A stretch of 64,000 nt of DNA from Escherichia coli (GTDB taxonomy: Bacteria > Pseudomonadota > Gammaproteobacteria > Enterobacterales > Enterobacteriaceae), in NCBI RefSeq assembly GCF_024223415.1, contig NZ_CP100500.1, one strand, 5' to 3'. Shown here piece by piece: positions 12,787-31,502 of this stretch. A model generated the notes under the pieces. It was given only the letters and a program-made list of their open reading frames with translations, was not told the DNA's origin and did no database searches. A program made the position numbers and the translations under genes. Positions within the stretch are counted from its first letter, which is position 1. Each line of letters opens with the position of its first letter.

Positions 12787-15700
12787 GATACTTTTCCTTT
12801 AGTCGGCAACTTTTCTACACCCAGCAGGGTTAGTAACATTGGGTTTATATCCAATGTCATGCGCAGTTTCGAGTTTTCCTGAGCGCGTCCGCTCTCTCGA
12901 TTTTTGGGCTGATAATACTGGTAGTCAGTTTGCAACAGGTTGAGGTAGTGGATCGTGTGATCCACATTATCCTGCCACATCAGATTATTAGGGTTCTGGC
13001 TGTAGGCGACGTTCAGATAGATAAATCGAATACGTTCATAACGGCCTGCCAGCGCCGTCTGGAGCTGTTTCTGCCCCTCAGTATCCGCCTTTTGGCTGGC
13101 GATATTACGGATCTGGCGAATCTTGTTGTCGCTTTTCTCAAGCGTTTCTTCTGCCCGCGTCAAATCGTCCAACTGTGTCGCCCAGCGCTTAACGTCGATG
13201 CAGAGCAGGTCGTCGCCCACTTCAATAAAGCGGTCAAAAAACTCATAGACCAGCGGTTCAAGGCGTTCAAACACCTGCTGGTCGGAGAGTGGGGTAACAC
13301 CATAACTTTTTAGCACTTTATCGAAGAGATATTCACCGACATTGCCTTTGAGCAACGGAACTAGCCTGGGGTTGGGTACCCATTTTTTGAATGCCTTTTC
13401 CTGGATGTTGTCACATTCACGAATCAACTCGCCGACCAGGTTGCCGGGGGTAAAATCGACATCGTTTCTATACTGCGGAAAGAGGGTGAGCTCTGGCCGG
13501 TACTCTCTTGCGCCGCCAGCGAAATCCGACAGGGCGGAATAATCTCTGTGGGCAAGTCCATCCGGGCCGCGTTTGTGGCAAAGTAAAATCGTTTGATTCC
13601 CTTGCTGACGATCGATAAACAGAGCGTCGTGAACAGATTGCATTTGTCGATTGGCGGTATACAAGGGATTAGCCTGGAGTTTTGCCAGCCAGCGCTGGGG
13701 ATCGGTAAAGGAGTCAGGATCGCGGAATAAATTACATATCTCGAGATAATCGAGATTGCCAGCGCGTACCTTATTAATCCAGTCGGTTTTAAGGACACGT
13801 TTGTGAATTTCATCGATGCGGCGACCATTCGCGACGATAGCTTGCTCAAACGTCAGTCGCTGTTCCGCATTATTGAATGACTGGCCCTGACTCAGCTTTT
13901 CGCACTCCTCCATGAGTCGGTGGTTAAGCAAAGACATACTTTCTGATACCACCTCGTTACCGCTATCTTCACTAAGAGCGGCGAACTGAAATGCAACATT
14001 ACGGAACACATCGCGGGGTAAAAAGATTTCTGTTTTCAATAGAGTGTCGCGACGCTCGACTCGCCCTACGGCCTGCACGACGACTTTGAATAAGCTCATA
14101 TCATGTTCGGCCATTAACAGGCGATAGTTTTCGCCGTGGGCGAAATTAACGTTGAAATCGGCCAGCTTGTGGACGGTAATATCGTCATCGGCGTAGTGTT
14201 TAAGCACGGTAACGTAGTTAGGTAATGTATTGAGGTTGCCGCTGTTGTCCTTTACTTCGCTGTAAAACGAGGAGTTGATGAGCACTAAGCGCTCAAAATC
14301 GACATCCAGACGTGGTGCATTGATATCATTAATATCGCCGTCATGGTATTTAACAAAGTAGTTGAGGCCGGTACCCGCACTTTTATAACTGCTCATAAAT
14401 ACCAGTACGGTATTGCTGTTCTGGAGATAGGTTTCTTGCCTGATATCTTCGACATTAGCCAGTGGTGAATCGAAAAAGACCAAATGGACGGTGTGACGCC
14501 CTTTGAATGGGGTAAAGGTCAGGATCTGGTCATGTTTCTTACCGTTATCCGTTTTTTCATCGCACCGGGAGTGCATACCGTACTGCTGACGCCAGGTTGT
14601 CTGGTGCGTGCGCCAGGCGCTGATAAAGGCCCGCTTAAACGTCCCTGAAAGTGACAGAATCAGGCTGTTTTTACCCTCCCAGGCGGCAAGCAGTAACGCT
14701 TCCAGTTCCCGCTGGCACTGACGCCGTTTATAGGTATTTTTCAGGTCGTATTCCAGCGGTTTCTTCAGCGCGTCGAAAAAGTTGTCATACGTCCTGCGAT
14801 AGATTTCACAATTTTGGTAGATATCGGTCAATTTTAACTGCTTATCATCGAACACCCTGAAGTCTACGTTGCGGATACTGGCCCTCAACCCGCGTAATGC
14901 CTTAAGCGTATCGATATCTGCCTTTTCGCGTTCAACGACCCGGTAGCCAAGGTCGCGGCTATAGTGCGCCAGGAAGTGACGATTGAAGTTACCGTTTTTG
15001 GTGTGGCTAAAACCGCTGGTGGCGCTAAGCCCAATTACTTTATTGTGCGTGCCGGTTAATAAACGCAGCAGCATGGCTTCAGGCAACTCTTGTACCAGAT
15101 CCATCTCGAACGCCAGAATAATTGTGCGCTCGGCTCCCCTGTTCACGTAATTGAGTTCAGCTATCGGCGTCATCGTGAATACGGTTTTGGGTTGCAGGTA
15201 AGTGTAGAAATGATCAATCAACAAGTTTTTATCGGTGGTGCGATCGAAGATATGTCGCACCACGCCGGCTACGTTATTGGCTGCGTCAACAAACTGGCCC
15301 AAAGGCGTATTCTGGCTGCTGGAGTTGTCCTGGCCACCATTCTTTACCCAGCGCTTAAAGTGCCGGTTGGTGATTTCAGAACAGGCGGCGAGGATGACGG
15401 AGACCAACTGGAACAGATCGTGCAGAGTGGGGTTGGTGTCATTGGCATCATTTTCGACTTCGTAATACAGTTCGGTGCGCGTTATGTCGCCTTCGCTGTT
15501 GCGCATGCGAATGCGTTTCAGCCCTTCTTCATTGACGTACATTTTGGGGTTAAAGCTGAATACGTTGCGGGTGATTGAGATGATGCGTTCGGCGGCGTCG
15601 CCGTTGACTTCAAATGCCCCTAACTGGTCACGAAACATCTCCAGGATCGATCCCAGCCTTGTACCGGGGGATAGTTCGCACTTTTCCGCCAGTAAATTGC

Positions 15701-17498
15701 GCAGAGTAGTGATGAATTTGACCATCTCTTGCTCAAAGGTCGTTTGCGCTTCTTTGGGCTTGTTTCGGCGTTCTAAGCTGAGTACCGCGTTGTGAATACG
15801 TCCTGCGACGGAAATAACGTGCGCCAGGTTATTTTCCTGTGTGATTAGCTTTACATGGCATGTTTCTTCAAGGCGAGTGTAGGCTTCATGTAGTTCATCA
15901 ATGATCACCGTAAAACGAATATTTTTCTGGCGAAAAGGACAATCTGGATTGCGTCTGAAGTGTTCGTCGCGAAGATAGGTAACCTGCCCGGTATGACCGG
16001 CTGCCGCAACGGTGCTAATCTGTGGATCTTTGGGAGTCAGCTTACCGCCAATCAGCAAGTCGAAACCTACGGACTCAAAACGCACACCTTCGCCTCGCTG
16101 ACGAGGCGCCAGTCGGTAAGTTGATGTGTCGAACTTATTCGTGGTCATTAATAGCACTGACGGGCGGTACTGGCAAACTTCGAAAGGCAATACCTGTTTG
16201 ATAAGCTCGAAATAGACTTCGTGTACGCTTATCTTAGGTTCAAGCTTTCCTGGTTTTCGTGCTGTCTCCGCGTTTTGCATTCGCTCTTGCCGCGCCTGGA
16301 GCCCGCGACGAATGTACTCTTTAATGGAAGCTTTTTCACTATCTGGTCCAAATAGTAATTTACAGGCTGACTCAATCGTATTGCGGATACTGTGACGGCA
16401 GTTTTTTAGCTGTTCTTCGAGAATTTCTCTTTCGTAGTTGGTATCCTGAGAACCGTATGTTGTCAGCTTTTTTAACTGCTCTTCACAGCGATCAATTTGT
16501 AAGACATGATAATTGAGCGAACGAATAGCGCCGCCGATATATTTGCTGCCTTTCGCCCCTTCGTACCACTGAATATAGCTGTCGCGGTTTTTCAGACCAG
16601 AGGCCCAGTCCATAAAGTCGAGGTCGGCAACATCCTTACGGGAGAGAACGCAAATGAACTCGCCGCTAGCGGCCAGAATTTTCTCTTTCTGACTGCTGTC
16701 CAGGTCGATTTGTGATTTTTGCGGTGACATGAATAGCAGGTTGGTAAAGCCACCTTCAGGAAACAGATCGTCTGACTTTTGGGTTTTGGCGAAGCGCTCC
16801 AGATATTCGACATACCCTTGGATCACGCCATAGCTTTTGCCGAACCCCGTGCCGTCGGAACTGAAGATGACCTCAGCGCCATCACGTTCATGCACGTGGT
16901 AAAGTTGAGAGACTTGGGCGCGACAGGCGTTAATCTCTTTAATCAGCGTTATGTCAGGAATTTGCCTAGAGATGAGATCTTGCAGATTATTATTGATATT
17001 TTTCTCTCCAACACGCTCACACTTGCGGTAACTATTGATGGTTATTTGGCCGCTGTCGATCAGAATCTTTTCCACCTGTATGGGGGCAAGATGCAAGGCT
17101 GTCGCGATTTCATTGATAGTATTGGACAGTGGTTCGTGTGGATTGCTAATCGTGAAGTGGTTTAGTGCTGCCGCAACGGTATCTGGATGCAATGCTTTTC
17201 TGAGGGTGGGAAAGGTGAGGCTGTAATCGTATAGCGCCAAATCATTGCTTATCAGGCAGCGAAACAGTTGTTTAGTGGGATCGCCACCAGGACGGCTGGC
17301 AAATCCCAAGATTTTTGCCTGTTCGAGGCGATAAAGCAATGCTGCGGCATCGCGGTCAGGTGAGTCAAATGCATCGTGGAGCTGCTGGCTAAATGGCATT
17401 GTGGCATTCAGCCGGTTATGGCTGACCAGCGCGGAAAAGAGCTGACGCACCAAGGTTAGCAGCTTACAATCTTCCTCTATAGTCCAGCTTTTTCTCAT
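12783..17498 (-). CDS. Large SF2-type helicase-like ATPase (~1571 aa from preferred start; ORF track start 17534) with unusually long inter-motif insertions
   Basis: Walker A DGTGFGKSYG, Walker B IIDELHE, motif III LSATSG, motif VI QAVGRVERR spread over ~930 aa; strong SD (AAGGGGAAGAAGA) before ATG at 17498, 11 nt after upstream stop. Confidence 0.6.
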   Translation of the reverse strand: MRKSWTIEEDCKLLTLVRQLFSALVSHNRLNATMPFSQQLHDAFDSPDRDAAALLYRLEQAKILGFASRPGGDPTKQLFRCLISNDLALYDYSLTFPTLRKALHPDTVAAALNHFTISNPHEPLSNTINEIATALHLAPIQVEKILIDSGQITINSYRKCERVGEKNINNNLQDLISRQIPDITLIKEINACRAQVSQLYHVHERDGAEVIFSSDGTGFGKSYGVIQGYVEYLERFAKTQKSDDLFPEGGFTNLLFMSPQKSQIDLDSSQKEKILAASGEFICVLSRKDVADLDFMDWASGLKNRDSYIQWYEGAKGSKYIGGAIRSLNYHVLQIDRCEEQLKKLTTYGSQDTNYEREILEEQLKNCRHSIRNTIESACKLLFGPDSEKASIKEYIRRGLQARQERMQNAETARKPGKLEPKISVHEVYFELIKQVLPFEVCQYRPSVLLMTTNKFDTSTYRLAPRQRGEGVRFESVGFDLLIGGKLTPKDPQISTVAAAGHTGQVTYLRDEHFRRNPDCPFRQKNIRFTVIIDELHEAYTRLEETCHVKLITQENNLAHVISVAGRIHNAVLSLERRNKPKEAQTTFEQEMVKFITTLRNLLAEKCELSPGTRLGSILEMFRDQLGAFEVNGDAAERIISITRNVFSFNPKMYVNEEGLKRIRMRNSEGDITRTELYYEVENDANDTNPTLHDLFQLVSVILAACSEITNRHFKRWVKNGGQDNSSSQNTPLGQFVDAANNVAGVVRHIFDRTTDKNLLIDHFYTYLQPKTVFTMTPIAELNYVNRGAERTIILAFEMDLVQELPEAMLLRLLTGTHNKVIGLSATSGFSHTKNGNFNRHFLAHYSRDLGYRVVEREKADIDTLKALRGLRASIRNVDFRVFDDKQLKLTDIYQNCEIYRRTYDNFFDALKKPLEYDLKNTYKRRQCQRELEALLLAAWEGKNSLILSLSGTFKRAFISAWRTHQTTWRQQYGMHSRCDEKTDNGKKHDQILTFTPFKGRHTVHLVFFDSPLANVEDIRQETYLQNSNTVLVFMSSYKSAGTGLNYFVKYHDGDINDINAPRLDVDFERLVLINSSFYSEVKDNSGNLNTLPNYVTVLKHYADDDITVHKLADFNVNFAHGENYRLLMAEHDMSLFKVVVQAVGRVERRDTLLKTEIFLPRDVFRNVAFQFAALSEDSGNEVVSESMSLLNHRLMEECEKLSQGQSFNNAEQRLTFEQAIVANGRRIDEIHKRVLKTDWINKVRAGNLDYLEICNLFRDPDSFTDPQRWLAKLQANPLYTANRQMQSVHDALFIDRQQGNQTILLCHKRGPDGLAHRDYSALSDFAGGAREYRPELTLFPQYRNDVDFTPGNLVGELIRECDNIQEKAFKKWVPNPRLVPLLKGNVGEYLFDKVLKSYGVTPLSDQQVFERLEPLVYEFFDRFIEVGDDLLCIDVKRWATQLDDLTRAEETLEKSDNKIRQIRNIASQKADTEGQKQLQTALAGRYERIRFIYLNVAYSQNPNNLMWQDNVDHTIHYLNLLQTDYQYYQPKNRESGRAQENSKLRMTLDINPMLLTLLGVEKLPTKGKVS

Positions 17499-17509
17499 TC
17501 TTCTTCCCC

Positions 17510-19708
17510 TTAATATAAATGCCCCTGCAACCACTCCGTCACGCGTTCAATATTAAAAGCACGTAATCCATATTCCTGCGTCAGCAACGTCTCGGGTAAA
17601 TACTCATCATATTTTTCGAGGCACTTTTCAACGATGCTTTCGGCAAGACGGGATTCGTAAGGTAGCCCTTCCTGAAGTGCGCTGAATAACGCTTGTTTAA
17701 CCTCCGAGACCGTAGTTTTTTCTACTTCAACCACACCAGCAAATGAGCCCGCCTTGAAACCGCGTTGGATAAGTAATGCCGACAACGTGTTTACGGTTTG
17801 ATCGCCTAGCCAGGGAAGAATGTAGACATGCTGTCTCTGCTGAATAAAACATTCCGAAGCCAGATTATTGTTGCGAAAACAGTGCAGCCCTTCATCAAAC
17901 AGGTTTTTGGCCGTGGTATCGGCAAAATCGGCCTTGCGATTGCCAACGGTGATGCGGTAGTCGCCTTCCCGATAAATAGTGAGCATTTCTTGGCGGACGA
18001 CATCATGAATGGACATCCCTTGTCCGCCAAATAACGGCGGCTGCCCACCCTTTGTCGCCTCGACATAAATAACTTTTTTATCACTATCGATATCGGTTAC
18101 CTTCCAGCGTCGACCGCCGAAAATAATGTGTTGATCAGGCATCAGTGGGGAATCAACGGGAATGGAGCCCAGTGTTTTGCTCCCCGCCACAATGCGAAAC
18201 TCTTCCGGCGTGCTGAACACGGCGTAGAAGGTGTATTGATTTACCTGACGTTCGCCCTCGACGCCCAGAACCAGTTCGCCGCTTGAGAGCTGGGTCAGAA
18301 ACTGGTGCTCCCCCATATGTTTCAATAACGTTTTGAAGTCATAGATCCGGACTTTCTGAAATGGCCCTTGCAGGCATAGCTGTGACCAGATCTGATCCGC
18401 ACGCACGCCTCCCCACTGCGCCACGATCGCCAGGATCTGATGGAACAGGGTGGAATAGTGCATCTGCCGGGTATCAGCTGGCTCAAACCATTTGTTGCCG
18501 ATAAGTAAGCGGATCATGGCCAGCGACTGAACAAGCTGAAGCCTGAGCTGGTCGACAATGCCTGATGTTGGCGTCAGTTCATGTTCGGCAATCAGCATTC
18601 TCAATACGGCAGGCGAGTCGCGCCGACCGGAGCGTCCCATTCGCTGACGCAGGCTGGCTACGGAATGGGGGGCGGTAACTTGCACAACGGAGCTGACTTT
18701 ACCGATGTCGATGCCAAGCTCTAACGTCATCGTACAGATGGCGGTGGTGGGTAAGTTGCCTTGTTGAAGCCTCTGTTCCAGCGTTTCACGCAGATCTCTG
18801 GACAGAGATCCGTGATGGGGAAAGAACTCATTGGGAACGATGCTCGCTTCACTGAGATCGCTAAGCGTGGCGGCAATGCTTTCGGTCCGTTTGCGACTAT
18901 TAGCGAACACCAGATGGGAATCACCACGACAGAGGCGAAAGATATCATGGCAGATTTGCGTCTCTGCCGACGGTGGAGATTGCTGGCCCGAGGTGGTCAG
19001 CGGTTCCAGATAACCTTTCACCTGTACTTTTAGCGTGGCGTGAGTCTGACTGTCGGTAATAATGTCACAGGGCAGACGTTGATTTGGCCGCAGAGATAAC
19101 GGCACCTGTTCCAGTTCCCCCAGCGTTGCGCTGAGTGCGACTCGGGGGACTGGATTGTTGATTCTTCCCAGCAGGTGATCGACTCGATTTAACAGAGAGA
19201 GAAGCTGCATACCCCGCTCAGAACCGATGAAAGCATGGAATTCATCAATGGCGATATATGCCAGTGGCGCGAAAGCCTGCTTTAACCATCCCGCATTGCG
19301 GATCAGCATCGCTTCCAGCGATTCCGGGGTGATAAGCAAAATACCGGCAGGATTCTTCTTTGCTTTCAGCTTTTTGCTCTGCGCAACATCACCATGCCAG
19401 GGCGTGACCGGCATCTCCAACGCATCACCGAGGTTTTCCAGCCTTCGATACTGATCGTTAATCAGGGCCTTAAGCGGGCTGATGTATAAAATGCCAAAGC
19501 CGCCCTGAATATCCGCAATGGCAGAACAGGCGGGCAGGAAAAACGCTTCTGTTTTACCTGCGGCAGTCGCGGCGCTGATCAGAACATCCCGATCGCCCGC
19601 TAATATCGGTGAAACGGATTTTTTTTGCAGTTCCCTGAGATCGGCCCATCCCTGCCGGTATATCCACTTCTGTATCCGTGGATCCAGCCGCTGGTATTCG
19701 TTCATCAT
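17510..19708 (-). CDS. DEAD/DEAH-box (Lhr-like) helicase; SngC-like
   Basis: Motif I AATAAGKTEA, motif II DEFH, SAT motif, motif VI RQRMGRSGRR; ATGA overlap with upstream ATPase gene. Confidence 0.65.
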   Translation of the reverse strand: MMNEYQRLDPRIQKWIYRQGWADLRELQKKSVSPILAGDRDVLISAATAAGKTEAFFLPACSAIADIQGGFGILYISPLKALINDQYRRLENLGDALEMPVTPWHGDVAQSKKLKAKKNPAGILLITPESLEAMLIRNAGWLKQAFAPLAYIAIDEFHAFIGSERGMQLLSLLNRVDHLLGRINNPVPRVALSATLGELEQVPLSLRPNQRLPCDIITDSQTHATLKVQVKGYLEPLTTSGQQSPPSAETQICHDIFRLCRGDSHLVFANSRKRTESIAATLSDLSEASIVPNEFFPHHGSLSRDLRETLEQRLQQGNLPTTAICTMTLELGIDIGKVSSVVQVTAPHSVASLRQRMGRSGRRDSPAVLRMLIAEHELTPTSGIVDQLRLQLVQSLAMIRLLIGNKWFEPADTRQMHYSTLFHQILAIVAQWGGVRADQIWSQLCLQGPFQKVRIYDFKTLLKHMGEHQFLTQLSSGELVLGVEGERQVNQYTFYAVFSTPEEFRIVAGSKTLGSIPVDSPLMPDQHIIFGGRRWKVTDIDSDKKVIYVEATKGGQPPLFGGQGMSIHDVVRQEMLTIYREGDYRITVGNRKADFADTTAKNLFDEGLHCFRNNNLASECFIQQRQHVYILPWLGDQTVNTLSALLIQRGFKAGSFAGVVEVEKTTVSEVKQALFSALQEGLPYESRLAESIVEKCLEKYDEYLPETLLTQEYGLRAFNIERVTEWLQGHLY

Positions 19709-21024: not shown

Positions 21025-23352
21025 TTATCCTTTGAGTTCTTGTGCAATTTCCAGGTCAACGTAAATATCATCGTCATCATCAAGCACCGGGGCGTCAACC
21101 TGTTCGAAAGACCAGTCATTAATTGCTTCAATCGCGCCGCTTAGCATCAAATTAAACTGCTGGCATAGCTCAGCGACTTCGTTTCGCGCCCAGCGTTCTT
21201 TTTCCTGCAAACGTTGGTAAAGTTGATGATGTGCTTCATCAAGACCTGCGCCAGCGTGTGGCGGGATCTCCGCTGGGGATTCGTCTGCGGGTTCATCTTC
21301 GGTGAAGATGGTGTTCAGTAACTGGCGTACGTCCGTTGTGTCGGATTCATGACGGGCAAGGATCCGTTCATCAAGAGAAAACGCGCCGCTCGTCGCTGAT
21401 GGGGTTTGTAACGTAGCTGTCGGAGTTGTTTCTGCGGTTGACAGTCGGTGGATATCGCTGGTAACGGCACTGCTGTCCAGACCGAGGCTGGCGTAGATTT
21501 TTTCCAGTTGTTTGATTTCAGCCGGATCGATTTTTCCATCTGCGCAGGCGACGCTGATAATCACGTTGCCAATAGTGGATTTATCTTTATCGCTGAGTTG
21601 CTCAATTTTACCTTTCAGACCAGCCTGATTTGCAGGCGTATTGAGCCGCCAGGTGAGGTAGGCGTGCAGCGAACGTTTTTCTGTTGGCGACAGCGCATCG
21701 TTATGATTAATCGTTTTCTCCAGCGCGGCCTGTTCAGCAACATCCACGCGCTTGTCCATTTGTGCAATCATGGCACCCAACCGAAGCGCCACAGAGACTG
21801 ACGTAAATTCCGCCGACGGTACGTAGAATTCCGCATGCCCTTCAGGAAATAAAACAAGATGACCTTCTGGATCCGGTCTGACAAGGTGATAGCGCATATC
21901 CGGCGCAATGCCGTAGCCTGCTCGCCGGGCGAAATTTTGCATCAGCTCGGCTTCTTTCTTATTAATCTTATCCGGTACAGGCATACCCAGTCTGGCCCAG
22001 AAATCAGCCACTGTCGCCAGTCCTGAATGTTCACGGATTTTCTCATCTGCCCAGTGTTTAAATTCAGCAAATAGACGTTCTGCATCTTCGGTCAGTATTT
22101 CATCGGGAAGCAGCATGATGGCGGCGACATCACTTGGTGAGGCATCTTTTTTACCGAGATAGCGACTGTAGGCATCCAGCGCGTTGATACAGGATTCTGC
22201 AACAGAAATTAATTTCTGAACTGGGGCTTTTAAAACGCTGGGATCGGGAAGATCCATCTGTTTTTTTACCTGAAGTTCCCGAAGCGTACCACTGGCGGGG
22301 GTATAGCTTAAATACAACCGTGTTTTATTGGGTTTGACGACAATACCGTCACCGTATTTTTGAGTATAACGCTGTTTGAATAATGCGGAAAATTCAGCAT
22401 GACATCGACGGGCAGGCGTGCGCAGGGTGTAATCAGGAAAATAGTATATCCATGCCAGTGCCAGAGCGGCACAAATAGGTTGTCCTTTATCGACCACAGT
22501 CGCTAGATTTAATCTGAACAGTAATGAACTCCTCGATGAGAAATATTCGTTTTCGGTATATATAGAAAGCAACTTCGGTCGGAGAACGATCATCATTTCC
22601 AGCAACTGCGTTGCATAATGCCGGAAGGAACCGCTTGCCTGAAATACGGTTCTCAGGCGCGATATCTCTTCGAATAATGCTTTGAATTCATCGTCAGAAA
22701 TGGCTTCTTGTGTGCCATCGGCCAGTACGCGGCGTTCTAGACCGTAAAAATAGATAAAAACATAGCCAACGGGGCAGCTCGCATCGCTGCGATCGCTTGC
22801 CAGCCAGTCAAGATAGGCGCCACGGCAGCGAGGGGAGAGTGTGGCAAAGCTGGGCCAGTATCCCAGTGACTCATCATAATAATGCCGTGAACCAGGCTCG
22901 ATGGGAAAAGCGTCATTAACCAGCGAAGCGTCGGAGTCATCGTTATAAAGATATCCATATTCTCCTGATGAATGTGTTTTTAACCGCCCGCCGAAATAAA
23001 AATAACCGTGATTAATGACGACATTTTGAATGGTGATGCTTTCTCCCGGTTTGACCCATCGCGCTGGAGTGGTATTGCTACGGGCGGCGTTTTCTCGTGA
23101 CGGCTGGCGGCTGGTGCTGTATTCAACCGTCTGCCCGTTCACAAAAGTAAAGGTTGCCAGTTCGTCATCATCGGAGGCCTGAGAATGCATATTTGTCATG
23201 CTGTTATCTGGCTTATTGAGAGATTTCTGTCGAGATGAATGATTTATTTTGGTGATGATTTTGTTGTTTACTCTGGGGGGCGGCGATTTTTTCTTTTTGG
23301 AAAACAGAAGCCAGATAACCGCCAGCATAATAACAAATATCCAGAAGCCCAT
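21025..23352 (-). CDS. Membrane-anchored TerB-domain protein (775 aa); SngA-like
   Basis: N-terminal TM helix (GFWIFVIMLAVIWLLF) followed by lysine run; C-terminal segment VIISVACADGKIDPAEIKQLEKIYASLGLD resembles TerB-type motif. Confidence 0.55.
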   Translation of the reverse strand: MGFWIFVIMLAVIWLLFSKKKKSPPPRVNNKIITKINHSSRQKSLNKPDNSMTNMHSQASDDDELATFTFVNGQTVEYSTSRQPSRENAARSNTTPARWVKPGESITIQNVVINHGYFYFGGRLKTHSSGEYGYLYNDDSDASLVNDAFPIEPGSRHYYDESLGYWPSFATLSPRCRGAYLDWLASDRSDASCPVGYVFIYFYGLERRVLADGTQEAISDDEFKALFEEISRLRTVFQASGSFRHYATQLLEMMIVLRPKLLSIYTENEYFSSRSSLLFRLNLATVVDKGQPICAALALAWIYYFPDYTLRTPARRCHAEFSALFKQRYTQKYGDGIVVKPNKTRLYLSYTPASGTLRELQVKKQMDLPDPSVLKAPVQKLISVAESCINALDAYSRYLGKKDASPSDVAAIMLLPDEILTEDAERLFAEFKHWADEKIREHSGLATVADFWARLGMPVPDKINKKEAELMQNFARRAGYGIAPDMRYHLVRPDPEGHLVLFPEGHAEFYVPSAEFTSVSVALRLGAMIAQMDKRVDVAEQAALEKTINHNDALSPTEKRSLHAYLTWRLNTPANQAGLKGKIEQLSDKDKSTIGNVIISVACADGKIDPAEIKQLEKIYASLGLDSSAVTSDIHRLSTAETTPTATLQTPSATSGAFSLDERILARHESDTTDVRQLLNTIFTEDEPADESPAEIPPHAGAGLDEAHHQLYQRLQEKERWARNEVAELCQQFNLMLSGAIEAINDWSFEQVDAPVLDDDDDIYVDLEIAQELKG

Positions 23353-23535
23353 TCCTTGCCCTTAATCGCTGATAACGCTTCCCGGCATTGTTCTACGATA
23401 GGCAAAGGCGGTAAGCATAAAACTGGAAGAGAGATCGTAAAATGATACCGCGAATGGGCTAGAGTACAAGCATAAAAACCCTATTATTCAAAAGGATTAT
23501 GTCATATGGCTGGGGGAGCAATTGGCAGGACCAGG

Positions 23536-24603
23536 TTATACCTCTGAATCACGCATAAAACGATTGATTTCATCTTGCGCATGACGAAGACGATCGGCAA
23601 TGTCAGCAAATCTGTCAGGCTGATGAAAGAACATTCCCCCTTCCACCGCCGTTTGATGATCCCCGGCGATCGCTGCGAACCGTTCAGCATCGTCAGGCAA
23701 CAGTTGCAGGTTTCCGACAATCACCTGAGTAAAATCCACACCCGGCACAGACCAGCGACGTTGCTTCATCTCGACCACATTGCGCATGGCTTCCAGCGTT
23801 TCATAGGGGCTGGCAAAATGATTACTCAGCAGACAATCCACATCATACCAATGGCGTGCCAGTCGGGCCGGATTTGGCGCTTTGGTTTGCGTGCAGAACT
23901 GGTGCAGCGCCGTCAGCTTTTCCCAAAGAATATAACCGGTGTCATAAGCGTTTACGGTCGCGGTGGGTAACTGGAGTGTATCCATGCCTGCGATCCCGGA
24001 CAGATAGCTTACAACAGGCATCAGATCGGTTGGCTTGCCACGATTTCGTCCGCCAAATTCCAGCAGAATATGATCGCGCTGATAGGCCATACTGTCTTCT
24101 TTCACCCGTGGGAAATAGATATCGACTTTTTCGCCACCACTGTCGGGTTCCATTTTTGCTTCAAGGCCCGGAATTTCATAAGTCTGAAAGCGTTGGTTTA
24201 ACCGTTCTGCCAGCGCGTTTGTCCATTCTGTTAAGCGCTCTTGCTGCTGCTCTCTGAACCGGCGATTCTGGCTGTTATTTAGCGTGCTTTGCTCCCATGC
24301 CTGCTGTTCTTCCTCTTCTGAGTGGCCTGCCAGATCGGCCCAGTGAACAGAAAGATCGATATCTTCAGAAAAACGCTCAATCACGTTCCAGCATTTGCTT
24401 AACGCCGTTCCACCTTTAAACGCGACAGATAAACCTCCCAGCAGCTCCTCATTAAAAAGTAACCGAAGGATCTCCGTTACCCAGAGATCCTTTTCCAGAA
24501 AGCTGGCTCCCAGCCCGGAGGGATGCTGCTGCGCCGCGTAAGAGAGGATTTCCTGAAGCTCGCGACGTTGTGATGCGCTCCGGTAGTAATCAAAAATGTC
24601 CAT
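23536..24603 (-). CDS. AbiEii-family nucleotidyltransferase toxin (ORF track start 24642; ATG at 24603 overlaps antitoxin stop)
   Basis: FKGGTALSKCWNVIERFSEDIDLSV motif characteristic of AbiEii/DUF1814 nucleotidyltransferases; ATGA overlap with upstream gene. Confidence 0.78.
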   Translation of the reverse strand: MDIFDYYRSASQRRELQEILSYAAQQHPSGLGASFLEKDLWVTEILRLLFNEELLGGLSVAFKGGTALSKCWNVIERFSEDIDLSVHWADLAGHSEEEEQQAWEQSTLNNSQNRRFREQQQERLTEWTNALAERLNQRFQTYEIPGLEAKMEPDSGGEKVDIYFPRVKEDSMAYQRDHILLEFGGRNRGKPTDLMPVVSYLSGIAGMDTLQLPTATVNAYDTGYILWEKLTALHQFCTQTKAPNPARLARHWYDVDCLLSNHFASPYETLEAMRNVVEMKQRRWSVPGVDFTQVIVGNLQLLPDDAERFAAIAGDHQTAVEGGMFFHQPDRFADIADRLRHAQDEINRFMRDSEV

Positions 24604-25262
24604 CAGAGCGCCTTTTGCAACGTTATCAGCTGCGAGCGCCACGCGTGAAGCGCAGGCTCATTCATCAACTTTCCGGCAATCTGCCGTGCTTTAGCGGACG
24701 GGATGCTCAGCCGATGAAAAGCATTCTTCAGCGTTTCCAATGGGGTATGTTGCTGATCCAGACTCAGCAAACCGCGCATCAGCTCTCCTTCAGGCCGGTT
24801 CAGCCAACGTAACCGACTTGCTGATTTATGCTGGATCCGTACCCGCTCATTGCCGACGCGGAATTCTCGCGTAGGGCCGTTTGACCAGTAGATGCGTTTA
24901 ACTGGCGCCTGCGTTTGCAGCCCCAGCCGGTAAGCGGCTTCCAGCCCCTGAAGGGTGATTTTGTAACCACGCTCTTTTGCCCATGCGGCGGCAACGGCAT
25001 TGGCGCTGGCAACAACGTTAACAGAGGGGATGTTTTTCAACGGCTTTGGCCGGGAGTAGAAACCGCGTTCAACCCGGACCAGCAGGCCTTCTTTGACCAG
25101 ACGGCTCATTGCCTGTTGTACCGACGCACGGCTTCCCAGCGAGTAAAACCCGCTGATGGAAAAGGGGATGCCACGCTTCATGCGGTGAACCCGCTGGCGG
25201 GCCAGAGCGGCAACAGACATTGATTCTCCTGTACTGACGTTTTCATTGATATGTATTTTCAT
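24603..25262 (-). CDS. AbiEi-like antitoxin / transcriptional regulator (type IV TA)
   Basis: 219 aa immediately upstream of and overlapping AbiEii; N-terminal wHTH-like region ...SRLVKEGLLVRVERGFYSRP. Confidence 0.65.
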   Translation of the reverse strand: MKIHINENVSTGESMSVAALARQRVHRMKRGIPFSISGFYSLGSRASVQQAMSRLVKEGLLVRVERGFYSRPKPLKNIPSVNVVASANAVAAAWAKERGYKITLQGLEAAYRLGLQTQAPVKRIYWSNGPTREFRVGNERVRIQHKSASRLRWLNRPEGELMRGLLSLDQQHTPLETLKNAFHRLSIPSAKARQIAGKLMNEPALHAWRSQLITLQKAL

Positions 25263-25418
25263 TATATCCCTTGTGTAGCAAGGAGTCTAACCTAAAAAAT
25301 GTCAGTAATATTCATTCTATGACAATGTTTAAAATGGCAGATATCAGTGAGGTAGCTTGCTGTAGGAAATTCCGACGATAAAATACCCACATACAGCAGG
25401 CGGTGATAAGGATATAGC

Positions 25419-27614
25419 ATGAGCATTCTCTCCATCCACGGCGTTCGCAGTTATCAGGGCGAAAGGCCAGTGGAGTTCGACTTGAGTAAGTATGTCACTC
25501 TTATCTATGGACAAAACGGCTCAGGAAAATCAACCGTTTCTGGTTACTTTTATAAGCATGGTCGTCCAGATTACAGCCAGTGCAGCCTGCGACCTCCACT
25601 GGATATGAACTACCTGGTGTTTAATCAGGAGTATGTAGACGATATTTTCAGCCAACCTTCTCAGCCGGGCATTTTCACTTTAAATAGTGAAAATGCAGAA
25701 ATTAAAACTGAAATAGATGCTCTGGAAGCGGAGAGTAAAGTTTTGTTTGCCCGGCGTGATGCTTTGGACGTGCAAAAACGCGACGTTGAGGGCATGGAAG
25801 AAAGTATTAAAAATGGCTCCGCAAAACAGATTTATAGTTCTACCGCAGAAATCAGAAAAACAGATTTATGGGATTTGATGTCTGGAACTAAACAGACCGA
25901 CAAACTTTTTCAGACCATCCTTGAACACACTGAAGTCGAAGATACTTCGACGCAGGAATTAACCGAAGAACTACACCGACTTGAAGCCAGTAAAGGCAAC
26001 CCTTACGCTTTGCTCGAAGCATTGCCAGCATCCCCTTTGAATGACAATGATATTGCGCTATTGATGCAACCTCTTATTCCAGCAGGTGATAGCCGTCTTG
26101 CTGCCGCAATTAACCAATTGGGCAACATTGACTGGGTGAGGAATGGACAGCAGTGGCTGAGTGATGACATTTGCCCATTTTGTCAAACGCCGATAGATGC
26201 CCGGCAACTTCAACAGGAAATCACTGCCCTTTTTGATACCTCATGGGAAGCTGCGATGGACCAGTTGCGGGAACTTCAGGCGCGATATCAATTCTGGCAC
26301 GATAAACCCGAACATATGCGGCAGTTAATAAAAACGTGTCCGTTAGTTGATCAGGAACATCCTGTTTATCTCTATCTACTTGAACTGGAGCAGGCGTATC
26401 AAAGAAATAAATTGCATATCGATGAGAAATTGACATCACCCTCTGCGTCGATTGCTGTTGAGGATCTTTCTGCTCTGGCTGGCAATGTCTCTGTGCAGAT
26501 AGCCAGTATTAATACAATAATAAGCGAACATAACCGAAAGGCTGAAAATTATCAGACTGAACGGGTTAGACTGAAACAGAGACTACTCAGTCATATCCGA
26601 AAACTGGCTACCGATACGATAATTAACCATGATGAACAACTAGCAGAACTTGCTGAAAAATTGGCAAAATTAACGGTGTCTCGGGATGAAATTACGGCCC
26701 AGCTTGATACGCTGAACGCAATTATTCGCGGTAAATCCAGCCTGATCGTCAATACGCAGGAAACGATTGAACGTATTAATCACAGCTTGGATAGCCTTGG
26801 AATCACTGGATTCCGCATTGCTCCCTATGACGATCGGGATGATTATCGTCTGGTGAGGGAAGGTGAGAACAGCGATACGCCTGTTTTTAGTAGTCTGAGT
26901 GAAGGGGAAAAGACGCTGATTGCTTTTCTCTATTTTCTGGAGACTTGCACAGGGAGAAAAAGTCGTGATGACAATGACCAACGAAAACGTTTAATTGTCA
27001 TTGATGATCCTATATCCAGCCTGTCGCAAAACTATGTTTTTGAAATAGCATCGTTGATCCAGCATCAGGTTATACGTGCCAGAATTGGTGAGAAAGTGAT
27101 TATTCTGACGCACAGCCTGTTTTTCTTTCAGGAGTTACTGCTTTCTGCGGAACGGAAGAAAAGGGCAGCGGGTTCTTGCCCACCAGAATGGACGCTTTAT
27201 CGGGTATCCAAATCCTTACATAGTTCTGCTTCCCTTGTTTCCGAAAAAGAATTACTGAACGACTATCAGGCACTCTGGTATGTCTTACGCCACGCCCAAA
27301 AAGATGACATTGCCAGTGTGGTGATCCCAAATACGATGCGGCAAATCCTTGAATACTATTTTGGTTTTTCGGGGAAAAGTGAGACGCTTCACCGGGCGCT
27401 TGAAACACTGGCGAGCGGGCCTGAAGGTGAACCTGGTTTCCGTATATTTGCTCGTTATCTAAATCGACATTCTCACCAGGATGCCCGCAATATCTCTCTT
27501 CATGAGGGGGCTTCGGTTGAACGCTATCTTACCTGGTTTAAGAAAGTATTCGAGGCGGCAAAGGATGAAGAGCATTACACATCAATGATGGAAAAGACGA
27601 CACAAACGACCTGA
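25419..27614 (+). CDS. ABC-type (SMC/RecF-like) ATPase, candidate RloC/PrrC-like anticodon-nuclease family defence protein
   Basis: Walker A GQNGSGKST at N-terminus, Walker B/D-loop LIVIDDPISSLS and H-loop ILTHS ~500 aa later, CPFC (CxxC) in the intervening predicted coiled coil, ~170-aa C-terminal domain. Confidence 0.45.
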   Translation: MSILSIHGVRSYQGERPVEFDLSKYVTLIYGQNGSGKSTVSGYFYKHGRPDYSQCSLRPPLDMNYLVFNQEYVDDIFSQPSQPGIFTLNSENAEIKTEIDALEAESKVLFARRDALDVQKRDVEGMEESIKNGSAKQIYSSTAEIRKTDLWDLMSGTKQTDKLFQTILEHTEVEDTSTQELTEELHRLEASKGNPYALLEALPASPLNDNDIALLMQPLIPAGDSRLAAAINQLGNIDWVRNGQQWLSDDICPFCQTPIDARQLQQEITALFDTSWEAAMDQLRELQARYQFWHDKPEHMRQLIKTCPLVDQEHPVYLYLLELEQAYQRNKLHIDEKLTSPSASIAVEDLSALAGNVSVQIASINTIISEHNRKAENYQTERVRLKQRLLSHIRKLATDTIINHDEQLAELAEKLAKLTVSRDEITAQLDTLNAIIRGKSSLIVNTQETIERINHSLDSLGITGFRIAPYDDRDDYRLVREGENSDTPVFSSLSEGEKTLIAFLYFLETCTGRKSRDDNDQRKRLIVIDDPISSLSQNYVFEIASLIQHQVIRARIGEKVIILTHSLFFFQELLLSAERKKRAAGSCPPEWTLYRVSKSLHSSASLVSEKELLNDYQALWYVLRHAQKDDIASVVIPNTMRQILEYYFGFSGKSETLHRALETLASGPEGEPGFRIFARYLNRHSHQDARNISLHEGASVERYLTWFKKVFEAAKDEEHYTSMMEKTTQTT

Positions 27615-29132
27615 TTAACAACAGAAGAGGACCATCACCCCGGGATTAACCGTTAGCAGTTCGGCAAAGAGCGCATGTGCTGGCACACGTGCTCCCAGCG
27701 ACCAAAACGGAAACGCAGATACTGGTGAACCAGCACAGTTTTCTGTTTCATACCGGGCTCCTTTCTTTCGACGCCGACAAGCTGTCGGCGAGCCCCGTAC
27801 ACCTCGTACGAGCGTGACTATCGTGTAGAGGCTAAGGATCCCGGGGGATGGCTTCCGCTATCGTAGGCGATTTCATTTGATGATTCAATCTTTGCTTTGG
27901 ATAACAATTAATTGAGATGGTCGTATTTTAGTATTAGCACTGTATGTCTTAGCTATAGTGCTGCTGAAATGACCAATTCGGGAACCGTGATGGTTTCCTG
28001 GAAACTCTCTTGCTTATTTTACGATGCTGGCCGATTATCACAAAACGTTGCTTAAACGCTGATTGGATATGGTGCTTTGTGGCAGTCATTCGCTTGTCTG
28101 ACGTTGCCATGGCTTACATTTGATGTAGCCAATGTAGAAGCCGCTTGGTGAATTGTTCTATGACATGGTCTACTACTTCGTTGTGGAAAATGAAGATGCG
28201 GTACCGGGTATGTACCATTGATGGTGAGAGGCTTATCGACGAATGGACCGTACGATATTGCTTGGCTGGAAAGGTGTGTGAAGCATTGTAGATTTACATT
28301 CACAAAATCGCGAGAAAATCTACAAACAACTCTATTTCCAGAAAAATGAGTTTCCCCTTTCTGCGCCAGAAATAAAGGCGTAATCTCCCTCCTGCACTAT
28401 GTTGTCGTGGACAACTCCCTTGCTTCATGGTCTGCAAGAAGCCCCTGATTTATCAGGATGACCAGCCCTTTCTACCGGTACGACCTCCGCAATACCGGAA
28501 CGCGAAAGCGTTTGAGGCTAAGAGTACATACACATGAACGGCTCCATCGTCATCGCTTAACGGCAACAGCCTTCACCGGCTGAACGGCCTCTCTTTGCCG
28601 GAATTTTCCTGGCCCACTTATACCCTGCTGATAACCAGCGCCTTTTTACATGACGGGCTGCGGCCTGCATTGCCGAAGGCTTTGCTGCCGCGTGACCGTC
28701 ATCCTGCACCAGAGTGTTAATTTTCAGACCCTGCGCCAGACCAGGGCGTCAGTCGCTCACGCGCAGTGAGAGACTGACGCCCGCAGAAATTTCCATCTGC
28801 ACCAGTCATATCAACTGTTCCAGCCACAGGCGAGCTTCTGACGTCGCTTTTCAGCATTTATCTCAACCATTCATTCACAAAAGGAGAACATGAGCCAGTA
28901 CCGGAGGAGGACCACCAGGACGGTCCGGGGGATGACCAGCTCACGCTGGCGGCTGCTCTGAGAGCACAACCGATACCCCGCAAAACCTCAACAGCCGTCG
29001 CCCCGGCGCTCAGGTACTGCTCGCAGCCCCGACAAAAATCAGGGGCTATCGGCCTACGCGCCGGGGAAAGCTGTATCCGTTGTTTGTTGTGGTTTTGTGA
29101 AAATCAGGAGCGAGAGAAGAGGAAAACGTAAA

Positions 29133-30014
29133 ATGGGTATGCTGGAAAGAGAGATGAAAAACCTGGCGCGGCAGGCTGGCGGGTCGCACAAGACTGTCCA
29201 TGACCGTATCGCCATGGCAGGACGTTTCTGCGAACGCCTGATGGAACTGAACGTTCAGATACGCTATGTCCACCATTTAAAGGCGAAGCATATTGAGGCG
29301 TATATTCAGATGCGGCTGGCGCAGGGGATTCAGAAAAATACGCTGCATAACGAAACGGCGGCTATCCGTAAAATCCTGACGCAGGCCGGGCGCGAAAAGC
29401 TGGCGCAGAGTGAACGGATATCGAATAAATCGCTGGGGCTGGCTGGCGTATCCCGCAATGGTACGCGGAAAGCCATCACGCCGGAATATTATCAACAGAT
29501 GGCAGAGGCTGCCCGGCTGAAAGATGCGGGGCTGGCGGCGGCGCTGGAACTGACGCGGCTGATGGGGCTACGCTCTCAGGAGGCAGTACGCTGTTCCGGT
29601 TCGCTGAAAACCTGGCGCGAAGCACTGGAGAAAGGTGATACCCGGCTAACCGTGGTACTCGGTACCAAAGGTGGACGGCCCCGTGACACGATTATTCAGG
29701 ATACTGGCGCAGTTAAACAGGCGCTGGATAAGGCCATCGTGGTGGCAGAACGGCGCAACGGCAGGCTGATTGATGCGGCGAGCCTTAAACAGGCAATGAA
29801 ATACTGGCGCAACCAGACTTTGCGTATGGGGCTGACGGGCAAATACTCCCCGCACTCACTGCGCTACGCCTGGGCGCAGGACGATATCTGCCGGTATCTG
29901 GCGCAGGGGTTCAGCGAAAAAGAAGCGCTGGCGATGGTGGCAATGGACCTAGGGCATGGCGACGGGCGTGGTCGCTGGGTGAAGCAGGTGTATGCACGGA
30001 ATGATGAAGCGTGA
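29133..30014 (+). CDS. Small tyrosine recombinase-like protein (ORF track start 29097 is GTG)
   Basis: C-terminal catalytic-like residues: ...GLRSQE..., TVVLGTKGGRPRD, HSLRYAWAQ (HxLR), MDLGHGDGRGRWVKQVYAR (LGH...Y); SD-like gaggaaaa upstream of ATG 29133. Confidence 0.5.
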   Translation: MGMLEREMKNLARQAGGSHKTVHDRIAMAGRFCERLMELNVQIRYVHHLKAKHIEAYIQMRLAQGIQKNTLHNETAAIRKILTQAGREKLAQSERISNKSLGLAGVSRNGTRKAITPEYYQQMAEAARLKDAGLAAALELTRLMGLRSQEAVRCSGSLKTWREALEKGDTRLTVVLGTKGGRPRDTIIQDTGAVKQALDKAIVVAERRNGRLIDAASLKQAMKYWRNQTLRMGLTGKYSPHSLRYAWAQDDICRYLAQGFSEKEALAMVAMDLGHGDGRGRWVKQVYARNDEA

Positions 30015-30195: not shown

Positions 30196-31502
30196 TTAGC
30201 TGGCGCAGGCCGCCTGAATCTGCCTGTCATACCGATACGGCGGGATAAATTTCTGCCGACAGGCGTCGAGATAATCCGACCACCACTGCATCATCTGTGT
30301 GCGCTCGTCGAGGTGCTCCGCCTTGTGGATATACGCGGCACGAACGTGATTACGCTCCTGATGGCTCATTTGTCGCTCCACGGCGTCTTTTGACCAGCGC
30401 CCGGACTCGATCAGCGCACTACAGGCCATCGTGCGGAAACCGTGACCGCAAACATCTGCCTGTGTGTTGTAGCCCATAACCCGCAGTGCTTTGTTGATGG
30501 TGTTTTCGCTCATCGGCTTACGCGGATCGTGGTCGCCGGGAAACAGTAACTCACTACTGCCGGACAACAGTTTTAACTGTTTGAGTATTGTCACCGCCTG
30601 CGCTGACAACGGCACCAGATGCTGCATCTTCATCTTTGCGCCGCGATTTGAATAACGCACGCCCGGAATCGGCTCCCGCTCCGCCGGGATGGTCCACATT
30701 GCGCCATCCAGATTGATCTCCGTCCAGCGGGCAAAACGTAGCTCGCTGGAACGGATAAAGATCAGCAGATTAAGCTGTACCGCCAGACGGGTTAACAGCC
30801 TGCCGGAATAGCCTTCAATACGCTCCAGCATCTCCGGTATTTTCTCCAGCGGCAGGGCGGGGTAGTGGTTTTTGGGCGGCGGTGCGATAGCCCCGGTCAG
30901 ATCGTTCGCCGGATTGCTGTCGATTATCCCCTCCTGCACCGCGTAACGCATGATTGCCGTGGTGCGCTGCTGAATCCGTGCAGCGGTCTCCAGCGTACCT
31001 TTTCGTTCCGCCACCCGCAGCGGGATCAGCAGATCGGCAGTTTTCAAATCAGAGACCGGAATTTGCCGATCAGTGGAAAAACATGCAGCTCCAGCGAGCG
31101 CAGGACTTTGGCGGCATGGGCTTCATTCCAGCGGATATTGCCCGCTACCCACTTACGGGCGATATCTTCAAAGGTGTTGCCGCTTTTACGTGCAAACTTC
31201 TCCTGCTGTTTTTTCACGCCGGGATCGCTGCCTGCGCTCAATACCGAGCGGGCATCCTCGCGCAGCTTGCGGGCATTTGCCAGAGAAACGGCCGGGTAAG
31301 CACCAAACGCCAGCTTCTTCTCTTTACCGCCGAAGCGGTACTTGAGGTGCCAGAGTTTAGATCCGTTGGGCTTTATCAGCAGGTACAGACCCTGCGCATC
31401 GCTGAGTTTCCAGGATTTATCAAGCGGCTTTGCATTACGGATGGCGGTATCGGTGAGGGACATAGTGGGGCTCCATAGTTTATCGAACCGACGGGCCCCC
31501 AA
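30196..31502 (-). pseudogene. P4-type tyrosine integrase split by a frameshift near 31045-31060
   Basis: N-terminal ORF (31044..31502) ...LKYRFGGKEKKLAFGAYPAVSLANARKLR...VFPLIGK; C-terminal ORF (30196..31047) ...ADLLIPLRVAERKGTLETAARIQQR...HGFRTMACSALIESG...; the two pieces are in different frames. Confidence 0.8.

Follow-up and report, generated by a model that had tools for sequence, protein, structure and literature searches.

Two adjoining minus-strand genes at positions 23,536 to 25,262 of a 64,000-nucleotide stretch of Escherichia coli DNA (contig NZ_CP100500.1, assembly GCF_024223415.1; here called the window, to which coordinates refer unless a locus is named) raise the question of whether they form an intact toxin-antitoxin (TA) pair of the AbiE type, and whether such a pair stands by itself or belongs to the defence genes on either side of it. 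A first reading of the DNA without database searches (the sequence-only reading) had proposed an AbiEi/AbiEii pair with a 219-aa antitoxin and an ATGA overlap of stop and start, placed immediately upstream of a five-gene operon. Comparative analysis indicates that the pair is very probably a self-contained bicistronic TA module of the AbiE/MenAT family (abortive-infection type), with a mechanism proposed partly by homology; it is an intact but ordinary AbiE-type pair, located in a phage-defence island of E. coli. Both open reading frames (ORFs) were found on the minus strand within the outer coordinates first given, and the pairing and its interpretation stand, while the antitoxin length and the wording of the overlap had to be revised.

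The toxin gene and its product

Investigation of the toxin by profile search, as the sequence-only reading had proposed, revealed a match to the Pfam family PF08843 (AbiEii, DUF1814) of 131.4 bits against a cut-off of 22.5 (E=6.6e-38), spanning profile positions 3-237 of 238, and an end-to-end match to the PADLOC AbiEii profile PDLC02315 (E=2.4e-193). The AbiEii signature recognized at first reading was confirmed, with KGGTAL at residues 63-68 and RFSEDIDL at residues 77-84. Motif I consists of G64-G65, followed after 15 residues by D81-I-D83, with R77 present, and motif II of R77-F-S79-E-D81-I-D83; the residues of both motifs are invariant in 48 homologues. Motifs III and IV were assigned by pattern inspection using published motif definitions (PMC3985639), as K229-L-T-A-L-H-Q-F, in which the Lys is kept, and R250-H-W-Y-D254, which has a His at the place expected for the first Asp; both stretches are invariant in the subfamily. 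The protein is accordingly annotated here as a predicted polymerase β-type nucleotidyltransferase (NTase) with its catalytic motifs intact, in which E182, on the strand formed by residues 178-185, is a candidate for the third acidic residue.

The AlphaFold (AF2) model built from the 48 homologues has a predicted local distance difference test (pLDDT) value of 90.8 and a predicted template modelling (pTM) score of 0.90, and its top Foldseek matches in the PDB were the Mycobacterium tuberculosis toxins MenT4 (Rv2826c, 6Y56; E=3.9e-6) and MenT3/TglT (Rv1045, 6Y5U; E=2e-5), both with probability 1.00 and with target-normalized template modelling (TM) scores of 0.55-0.64. A profile search against PDB sequences also found MenT4 (E=0.0018), the family profile aligning FKGGTalskcw...RFSeDiDlS with FKGGTSLRKC...RFSTDLDFS; besides this match nothing significant was found among PDB sequences in either single-sequence or profile searches, and no NCBIfam model matched the toxin or the antitoxin. 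Directly after motif II, at residues ~88-145 (24339-24176), the toxin has a helical insertion of ~55 residues, rich in E, Q and R and modelled as two helices, which is present neither in the Pfam profile nor in the MenT3 and MenT4 structures.

The antitoxin gene and its product

The upstream gene encodes a protein of the Pfam family DUF6088 (67 bits, E=2.7e-18). The AbiEi_4 search proposed at first reading was borne out at the level of the family, 44 of 50 antitoxin-family members matching this winged-helix profile at E<=0.01 (best 9e-7), and 18 PADLOC AbiEi profiles matched the antitoxin itself, the best of them (E=7.2e-46) covering residues 15-196 in a scan made with the 219-aa ORF; for the E. 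coli protein the AbiEi_4 score stayed below threshold, as discussed further down. The E-values obtained for both proteins with Pfam and PADLOC argue that the match of the pair to the AbiE families is not due to chance.

In the AlphaFold model the N-terminal part has a helix-helix-helix-hairpin arrangement, with a helix at residues 3-15, a recognition helix at 31-43 and a beta-hairpin at 48-56, which constitutes a winged helix, a feature on whose presence the sequence-only reading had depended. This domain (residues ~1-57) is followed by an alpha/beta domain and a helical tail. The top Foldseek match was Rv2827c (1ZEL), the AbiEi homologue of M. tuberculosis (probability 0.90, E=7.4e-3), so that the best structural matches of toxin and antitoxin, Rv2826c and Rv2827c, are the two partners of one mycobacterial system. 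Further matches were to ANT-type adenylyltransferases and CCA-adding enzymes. The same Foldseek spectrum has been published for genuine AbiEi (PMC7319586), and the weak NTase-like matches of the C-terminal domain were not retained as a novelty. Taken with its moderate model and weak structural match, the antitoxin appears to be a two-domain AbiEi-like protein, consisting of a winged helix-turn-helix (wHTH) domain and an AbiEi-type C-terminal core, that is filed as DUF6088. The most conserved segment of the protein is the loop of residues 99-108, LGLQTQAPVK.

Gene starts and the junction of the two genes

Regarding the junction, the toxin ATG does share sequence with the antitoxin stop as first proposed, but the overlap is the 1-nt TGATG type and not the 4-nt ATGA type, position 24603 being the only shared base (CTGATGG, 24606-24600). 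A TGATG or TAATG junction was detected in 10 of the 11 homologous loci compared, the Shewanella locus having ATGA, and the 1-nt overlap is compatible with translational coupling. The start calls of the Prokaryotic Genome Annotation Pipeline (PGAP) are ATG 24603 for the toxin and a start giving 205 aa for the antitoxin. The longest toxin ORF, from a GTG at 24642, was dropped in favour of ATG 24603, at which position the aligned homologues begin with M-(D/N/S)-I-F; toxin homologues are mostly 345-359 aa long, with a few calls of up to 416 aa. The toxin ORF is intact and is a normal coding sequence in the E. coli records listed, whose RefSeq labels are "AbiEii/AbiGii toxin family protein" for the toxin and "DUF6088 family protein" for the antitoxin.

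The antitoxin length of 219 aa given at first reading, which requires a start at ATG 25262, is very probably over-extended by 14 codons and was rejected because of the PGAP call, the lengths of the homologues (most of 205-207 aa), the strong Shine-Dalgarno sequence AGGAG, the overlap of ATG 25262 with the best promoter-like -10 hexamer, and the stops and divergence found in the extension. The extension contains an in-frame TAA both in a Salmonella locus, the toxin of which is 95% identical, and in Budvicia, and 5 of its 14 residues differ in a comparison of two E. coli variants that share 97.6% identity over the mature antitoxin; the AGGAG sequence is kept in the second E. coli variant, in Salmonella and in Budvicia. 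ATG 25220 is therefore most likely the real start of the antitoxin. Plus-strand antisense ORFs at 23575-23970, 23856-24257 and 24915-25223 were without support and were taken as spurious.

Promoter and predicted operator

Among sigma-70-like sites of the minus strand, a promoter scan ranked TAGACT-17-TATAAT, upstream of the antitoxin gene, highest by its match to the consensus (Table 1). This predicted promoter is bracketed by a 12-nt inverted repeat (I1), the arms of which are 92% complementary. The repeat was compared in 10 loci from nine genera, comprising two E. coli variants, Klebsiella, Budvicia, Shewanella, Pseudoalteromonas, Neptunomonas, Cellvibrio, Saccharospirillum and Oceanobacter, with proteins down to ~55% identical. 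The pattern CTGAC-N61/62-GTCAG was exact in nine of the 10 loci, with a core-to-core distance of 66-67 bp, Klebsiella having GTCAC with the spacing unchanged; all 10 had a -10-like hexamer between the arms, at the same relative place, and the downstream arm lies 15-24 nt before the start codon. The arms co-vary, being TACTGAC/GTCAGTA in the window and in Budvicia, one mismatch away from this in the other E. coli variant and in Klebsiella, and ATCCTGAC/GTCAGGAT in marine taxa. Between the E. coli variants the upstream arm is kept while the flanking intergenic DNA has diverged, and in shuffled upstream regions such a repeat pattern arises with a frequency of ~1e-4 per locus. The constancy of the 66-67 bp spacing across these 10 loci and nine genera suggests that the repeat is an autoregulatory operator of the antitoxin. 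It has the hallmarks of a protein-bound operator, and AbiEi proteins that have been characterized control their own expression by way of inverted repeats.

An explanation of the inverted repeat as an RNA stem was rejected: the conserved -35 and -10 hexamers both lie downstream of the upstream arm, and the arm mismatches are A·C and not G·U. A scan of positions 23200-25500 against Rfam gave no RNA family at E<=1, and a type III RNA antitoxin, a known small RNA or a riboswitch is therefore not indicated there. In most of the ten abiE promoters a conserved (A/T)CACAT-like block (25246-25260 in the window) follows the -10 hexamer at a distance of 6-9 nt, and could mark the transcription start or a further protein contact.

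Table 1. Features of the abiE-type pair on the window, and the surroundings of homologous pairs in other genera.
Feature	Position	Strand	Basis or remark
abiEii-like toxin gene, 355 aa	23536..24603	minus	ATG at 24603; Pfam, PADLOC, AF2 model, Foldseek
Antitoxin gene (Pfam DUF6088, AbiEi-like), 205 aa	24603..25220	minus	ATG at 25220
TGATG junction	24601..24605	minus	stop TGA 24605-24603, start ATG 24603-24601; sequence
14 extra codons of the 219-aa ORF	25221..25262	minus	most likely untranslated: promoter and 5' untranslated region
Shine-Dalgarno sequence AGGAG	25226..25230	minus	5 nt upstream of antitoxin ATG 25220
Predicted downstream operator arm AAAACGTCAGTA, core GTCAG 25238-25234	25232..25243	minus	between predicted transcription start and Shine-Dalgarno sequence
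Predicted sigma-70 promoter, -35 TAGACT (25289-25284), 17-nt spacer, -10 TATAAT (25266-25261)	25261..25289	minus	consensus, 10/12 matches
Predicted upstream operator arm TACTGACATTTT, core CTGAC 25305-25301	25296..25307	minus	just upstream of -35
Pair in Salmonella, same chromosomal site			opposite-strand Wadjet; homology ends just past toxin stop
Pair in Klebsiella			beside BREX and ScoMcrA-like nucleases
Pair in Enterobacter			beside DISARM-like genes
Pair in Pseudoalteromonas			beside Hachiman and BrxR
Pair in Budvicia			beside OLD-family nuclease
Pair in Neptunomonas			beside Tn7-like genes
Pair in Oceanobacter			beside type IV secretion system genes

Neighbouring genes and autonomy of the cassette

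The defence-island context proposed at first reading was substantiated. Downstream on the same strand, after a gap of 183 bp, genes of a Shango system were detected, encoding SngA (a TerB protein, E=4.6e-97), SngB (E=4e-187) and SngC (E=1e-273), while a divergent gene upstream encodes the AAA_13 ATPase of PDC-S06 (PADLOC, E=3e-242). The Shango helicase gene is followed, at 10555-17534 on the minus strand, by two large ORFs of 1583 aa (1571 aa in PGAP) and 743 aa, with overlapping stops and starts between these and the helicase gene and with no match in Pfam, PADLOC or NCBIfam; in a 92%-identical E. coli variant (L002) an opposite-strand Wadjet-like cassette takes the place of the two ORFs. The "five-gene operon" of the sequence-only reading therefore consists of Shango SngABC and two variable cargo genes without family match.

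The proximity of these systems raises the possibility that the pair is an accessory or regulator of the Shango operon or of the divergent PDC-S06 gene, the wHTH protein acting in a BrxR-like manner. The pair does lie between Shango and PDC-S06 in all 33 E. coli genomes that have it, and the antitoxin promoter and the PDC-S06 gene share an intergenic region of 198 bp. In addition, a terminator scan of the 183 bp between the toxin stop and the TerB/sngA gene found none, the gap folding no better than shuffled sequence (z=0.47), and a small AU-rich hairpin with a U-run in the gap is not kept in the second E. coli variant; with no convincing terminator between them, read-through from the toxin gene into Shango is possible. 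Against an accessory role stand the Salmonella locus, in which the pair is followed by Wadjet instead and the homology stops with the toxin gene, the unrelated neighbours in other genera (Table 1), and the position of both operator arms within the abiE promoter, the repeat travelling with the cassette. An accessory function is thus considered very unlikely, and obligatory linkage to Shango was rejected in view of Salmonella and the other genera. The pair is instead an autonomous cassette that moves independently between defence islands.

The Salmonella enterica locus (CP022138; L015 7733-16939), which lies by yqgA/speC, retains 150 aa of the AAA_13 ATPase as a remnant; next come the AbiE pair and, in place of Shango, Wadjet JetABCD, which shows turnover of neighbours around a retained AbiE cassette. 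Just upstream of the PDC-S06 gene, positions 25341-25418 are near-invariant among E. coli variants where the adjacent abiE-proximal DNA diverges; this segment holds an inverted repeat, GCTTGCTGTA / TACAGCAGGC, with arms 27 nt apart, and could be a regulatory element of PDC-S06.

Distribution, chromosomal site and selection

The locus was present in 33 of 5426 complete E. coli genomes, always chromosomal and in single copy, its site being the pheV island adjoining tRNA-Phe, yqgA and speC. The window has a P4-type tyrosine integrase in two pieces, one ORF of 152 aa for the arm-binding part and another of 283 aa for the catalytic part, and in RefSeq relatives the gene is frameshifted; the integrase region covers 30196-31502 and 29097-30014, and a second integrase there has Integrase_1 and Phage_int_SAM_2 domains. 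In strain SCU-316 a tRNA-Phe gene follows the integrase, where in the window a DUF4942/CbtA-type island abuts instead; ARAGORN found no tRNA anywhere in the window.

Regarding the state of the genes, it is extremely unlikely that the locus is a decaying, non-functional remnant. Orphan or degraded versions do exist, the Budvicia toxin being 40 aa and the Lonsdalea and Photorhabdus toxins 252-268 aa; against decay in E. coli, both ORFs are full length relative to their homologues, all catalytic residues are intact, and promoter, Shine-Dalgarno sequence and operator are conserved. The ratio of non-synonymous to synonymous substitution rates (dN/dS) between two E. coli variants of ~92% DNA identity was 0.17 for the toxin and 0.05 for the antitoxin, values that point to purifying selection on both genes. 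Budvicia diplopodorum (L007 8001-8740) has an orphan DUF6088 antitoxin, 76% identical, with operator and Shine-Dalgarno sequence intact and the toxin truncated to 40 codons, and a second, unrelated AbiEii gene lies ~7 kb from it. An antitoxin with a decayed toxin was thus seen, and the reverse was never seen among the loci examined. Together with the purifying selection on both genes, this gives indirect support to the predicted growth arrest by the toxin and rescue by the antitoxin.

Proposed mode of action

Toxicity, phosphorylation, tRNA targeting and phage defence are attributed to this pair by analogy with characterized homologues, namely Streptococcus agalactiae AbiE, M. tuberculosis MenAT1 and MenAT3 and Serratia AbiE, from which the following mechanism is drawn. 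Free toxin would add nucleotides to the 3' acceptor ends of tRNA, leading to a block of translation and to reversible growth arrest. The antitoxin would bind the toxin transiently, placing its conserved loop (proposed to be residues 99-108) at the active site, and this contact would make the toxin phosphorylate its own Ser79 as an off switch, following type VII logic. Through its wHTH domain the antitoxin would also bind the two CTGAC half-sites 67 bp apart and repress its own operon, and the toxin would be expected to be released when phage infection, or loss of the island, reduces the supply of antitoxin or the phosphorylation.

Several published results underlie these steps. S. agalactiae AbiE has been reported to show toxicity, nucleoside triphosphate binding and autoregulation (Dy et al. 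2014, PMC3985639), and MenT toxins to add nucleotides to tRNA acceptor ends and to undergo antitoxin-induced auto-phosphorylation (PMC7450476, PMC10435456, PMC11375011). According to a 2026 preprint by Arrowsmith et al., AbiEi induces auto-phosphorylation of AbiEii at T65, and AbiE, first placed in type IV, is reclassified there as type VII; in the apo form this residue (with D67/D69) is on a loop before the catalytic strand (10.64898/2026.01.19.700257). The phospho-acceptor of MenT3, S78 (with D80/D82), likewise lies two residues before the first Asp. Ser79 of the E. coli toxin holds the same position relative to the first catalytic Asp, is invariant in 48 homologues and is modelled on a loop between the helix of residues 64-72 and the strand of residues 82-86. 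In both AbiEi and MenA3 it is the loop joining helix 5 to strand 4 that reaches into the active site of the toxin; the antitoxin loop 99-108 is topologically equivalent in the model, and we infer from this that it may be the toxin-engaging loop.

An alternative within the same family is that neutralization follows another route, either type IV, by protection of the target with no contact between the partners, or type II, by stable stoichiometric sequestration. AbiE was first defined as type IV (PMC3985639), MenA1 is able to form a stable complex with MenT1, and LGLQTQAP (or the basic RPKPL at residues 57-61) is chemically unlike the acidic D85-E86-I87 loop of S. agalactiae AbiEi. The invariance of Ser at the phospho-acceptor position in 48/48 homologues speaks against both routes. 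So does the fact that AbiEii, MenT1 and MenT3 have been shown, or are proposed, to auto-phosphorylate, with RlegT and SanaT predicted to do the same, and neutralization by type IV or type II is regarded as unlikely. Auto-phosphorylation at Ser79 is retained as the proposed off switch.

A number of observations weigh against the assignment of the pair and its proposed function. The AbiEi_4 score of the antitoxin, 22 bits, is just below the cut-off of 25, its AlphaFold model is of moderate quality only (pLDDT 78, pTM 0.57), the structural match to Rv2827c is weak in TM score (0.29) as in E-value, and single-sequence and profile searches against PDB sequences gave no significant match, with only a marginal similarity to GntR-type wHTH proteins. 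In the toxin, motif IV (RHWYD) departs from the published +DxxD, motif III is without Arg at +7, and because the ~55-residue helical insertion is absent from MenT3 and MenT4 the substrate could differ. The 67-bp spacing of the arms is unlike that of characterized operators, those of AbiEi and Rv2827c being 23-bp repeats 3 or 13 bp apart (PMC7319586). When S. agalactiae AbiE was tried in E. coli against 32 coliphages it did not protect, which cautions against taking a defence role for granted, and no experiments on the present subfamily were found in the searchable literature, its functions being extrapolated.

DUF6088-type antitoxins may constitute a distinct AbiEi lineage, combining a looping or clamping repressor, an LGLQTQAP trigger and a toxin redirected by its insertion; this combination is put forward tentatively, and is doubtful as a whole. 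In such a lineage two monomers may occupy half-sites 67 bp (~six helical turns) apart and loop or clamp the whole core promoter, the invariant LGLQTQAP loop may take the place of the classical acidic AbiEi loop and trigger Ser79 auto-phosphorylation, and the ~55-aa insertion may redirect the toxin to a substrate other than the tRNAs used by MenT.

The gene context makes a phage-defence role of the pair plausible. TA modules commonly stabilize genomic islands, and a functional pair might alternatively serve addiction, retaining the pheV island and having no measurable anti-phage activity. The location inside a mobile island with an integrase remnant would fit this, as would the 32 coliphages that S. 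agalactiae AbiE did not block. On the other hand, the cassette adjoins recognized defence systems in the majority of the loci examined, which come from at least six genera (Shango, PDC-S06, Wadjet, BREX, DISARM-like genes, Hachiman and an OLD-family nuclease), a pattern typical of defence genes, and lactococcal AbiE, RlegTA and SanaTA affect phages. Addiction alone is therefore possible but somewhat improbable, and the two roles are compatible with each other.

Relation to known systems

The pair resembles the AbiE systems of S. agalactiae and Lactococcus in being bicistronic with the antitoxin first and a stop/start overlap, in its DUF1814 toxin with hG[G/S]x15DhD, the Arg of motif II, the Lys of motif III and an Asp in motif IV, in the Ser/Thr two residues before the first catalytic Asp, and in a two-domain wHTH antitoxin and inverted repeats in the promoter (IR1/IR2, PMC3985639). 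It differs from them in motif IV (RHWYD instead of +DxxD), in an antitoxin that falls into DUF6088 with AbiEi_4 sub-threshold, and in an overlap of 1 nt (TGATG) instead of 4 nt, and the cores of the E. coli arms are separated by 67 bp, with the whole promoter enclosed between the arms, where S. agalactiae has two 23-bp repeats 3 bp apart.

For both partners the best structural matches are with M. tuberculosis MenAT4 (Rv2827c-Rv2826c) and MenAT3 (Rv1044-Rv1045); the motif RFSxDxDxS aligns with MenT4, and S78 of MenT3 corresponds to Ser79. Sequence identity, however, is only 13-16%, the solved MenT3 and MenT4 proteins are 288-293 aa long and lack the helical insertion that follows motif II in the 355-aa E. 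coli toxin, and Rv2827c, at 295 aa, possesses a C-terminal domain that is extended and a promoter containing four tandem repeats.

Gram-negative pairs of the AbiE family have been described as RlegTA, SanaTA and SdenTA (COG5340-DUF1814, recovered by shotgun cloning) and as Serratia AbiE-1/2/3; for these, toxicity and rescue have been demonstrated, some affect phage T7, the Serratia AbiE toxin perturbs tRNA pools, and the antitoxins span several Pfam families, which illustrates the heterogeneity of AbiEi (PMC7725324). Compared by description, the E. coli pair differs in that none of their antitoxins was reported as DUF6088. The combination "AbiEii/DUF6088" was listed as a novel TA combination, with 13 pairs counted, in a marine metagenome survey of 2025 (PMC12654330, Table 2), which counts pairs only and contains no analysis of AbiEi homology, operator or mechanism; the domain pairing is the same, and marine Gammaproteobacteria contribute many of the homologues of the pair studied here. 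RefSeq and PADLOC already cover the family, this combination of domains and the proteins of E. coli; what is mildly unusual about the pair is the spacing of its predicted operator, the insertion in its toxin and its variant of motif IV.

Implications

Beyond annotation the finding matters little: this stretch of the pheV island is a stack of defence modules in which the AbiE cassette is intact. Three by-products are modestly useful. The analysis provides evidence that Pfam DUF6088, which RefSeq still labels as a DUF, is an AbiEi-type antitoxin family, and it yields a conserved predicted operator motif with defined spacing. The third is the conserved Ser79, which would bring an AbiE subfamily of enterobacterial and marine occurrence under the type VII model of auto-phosphorylation.

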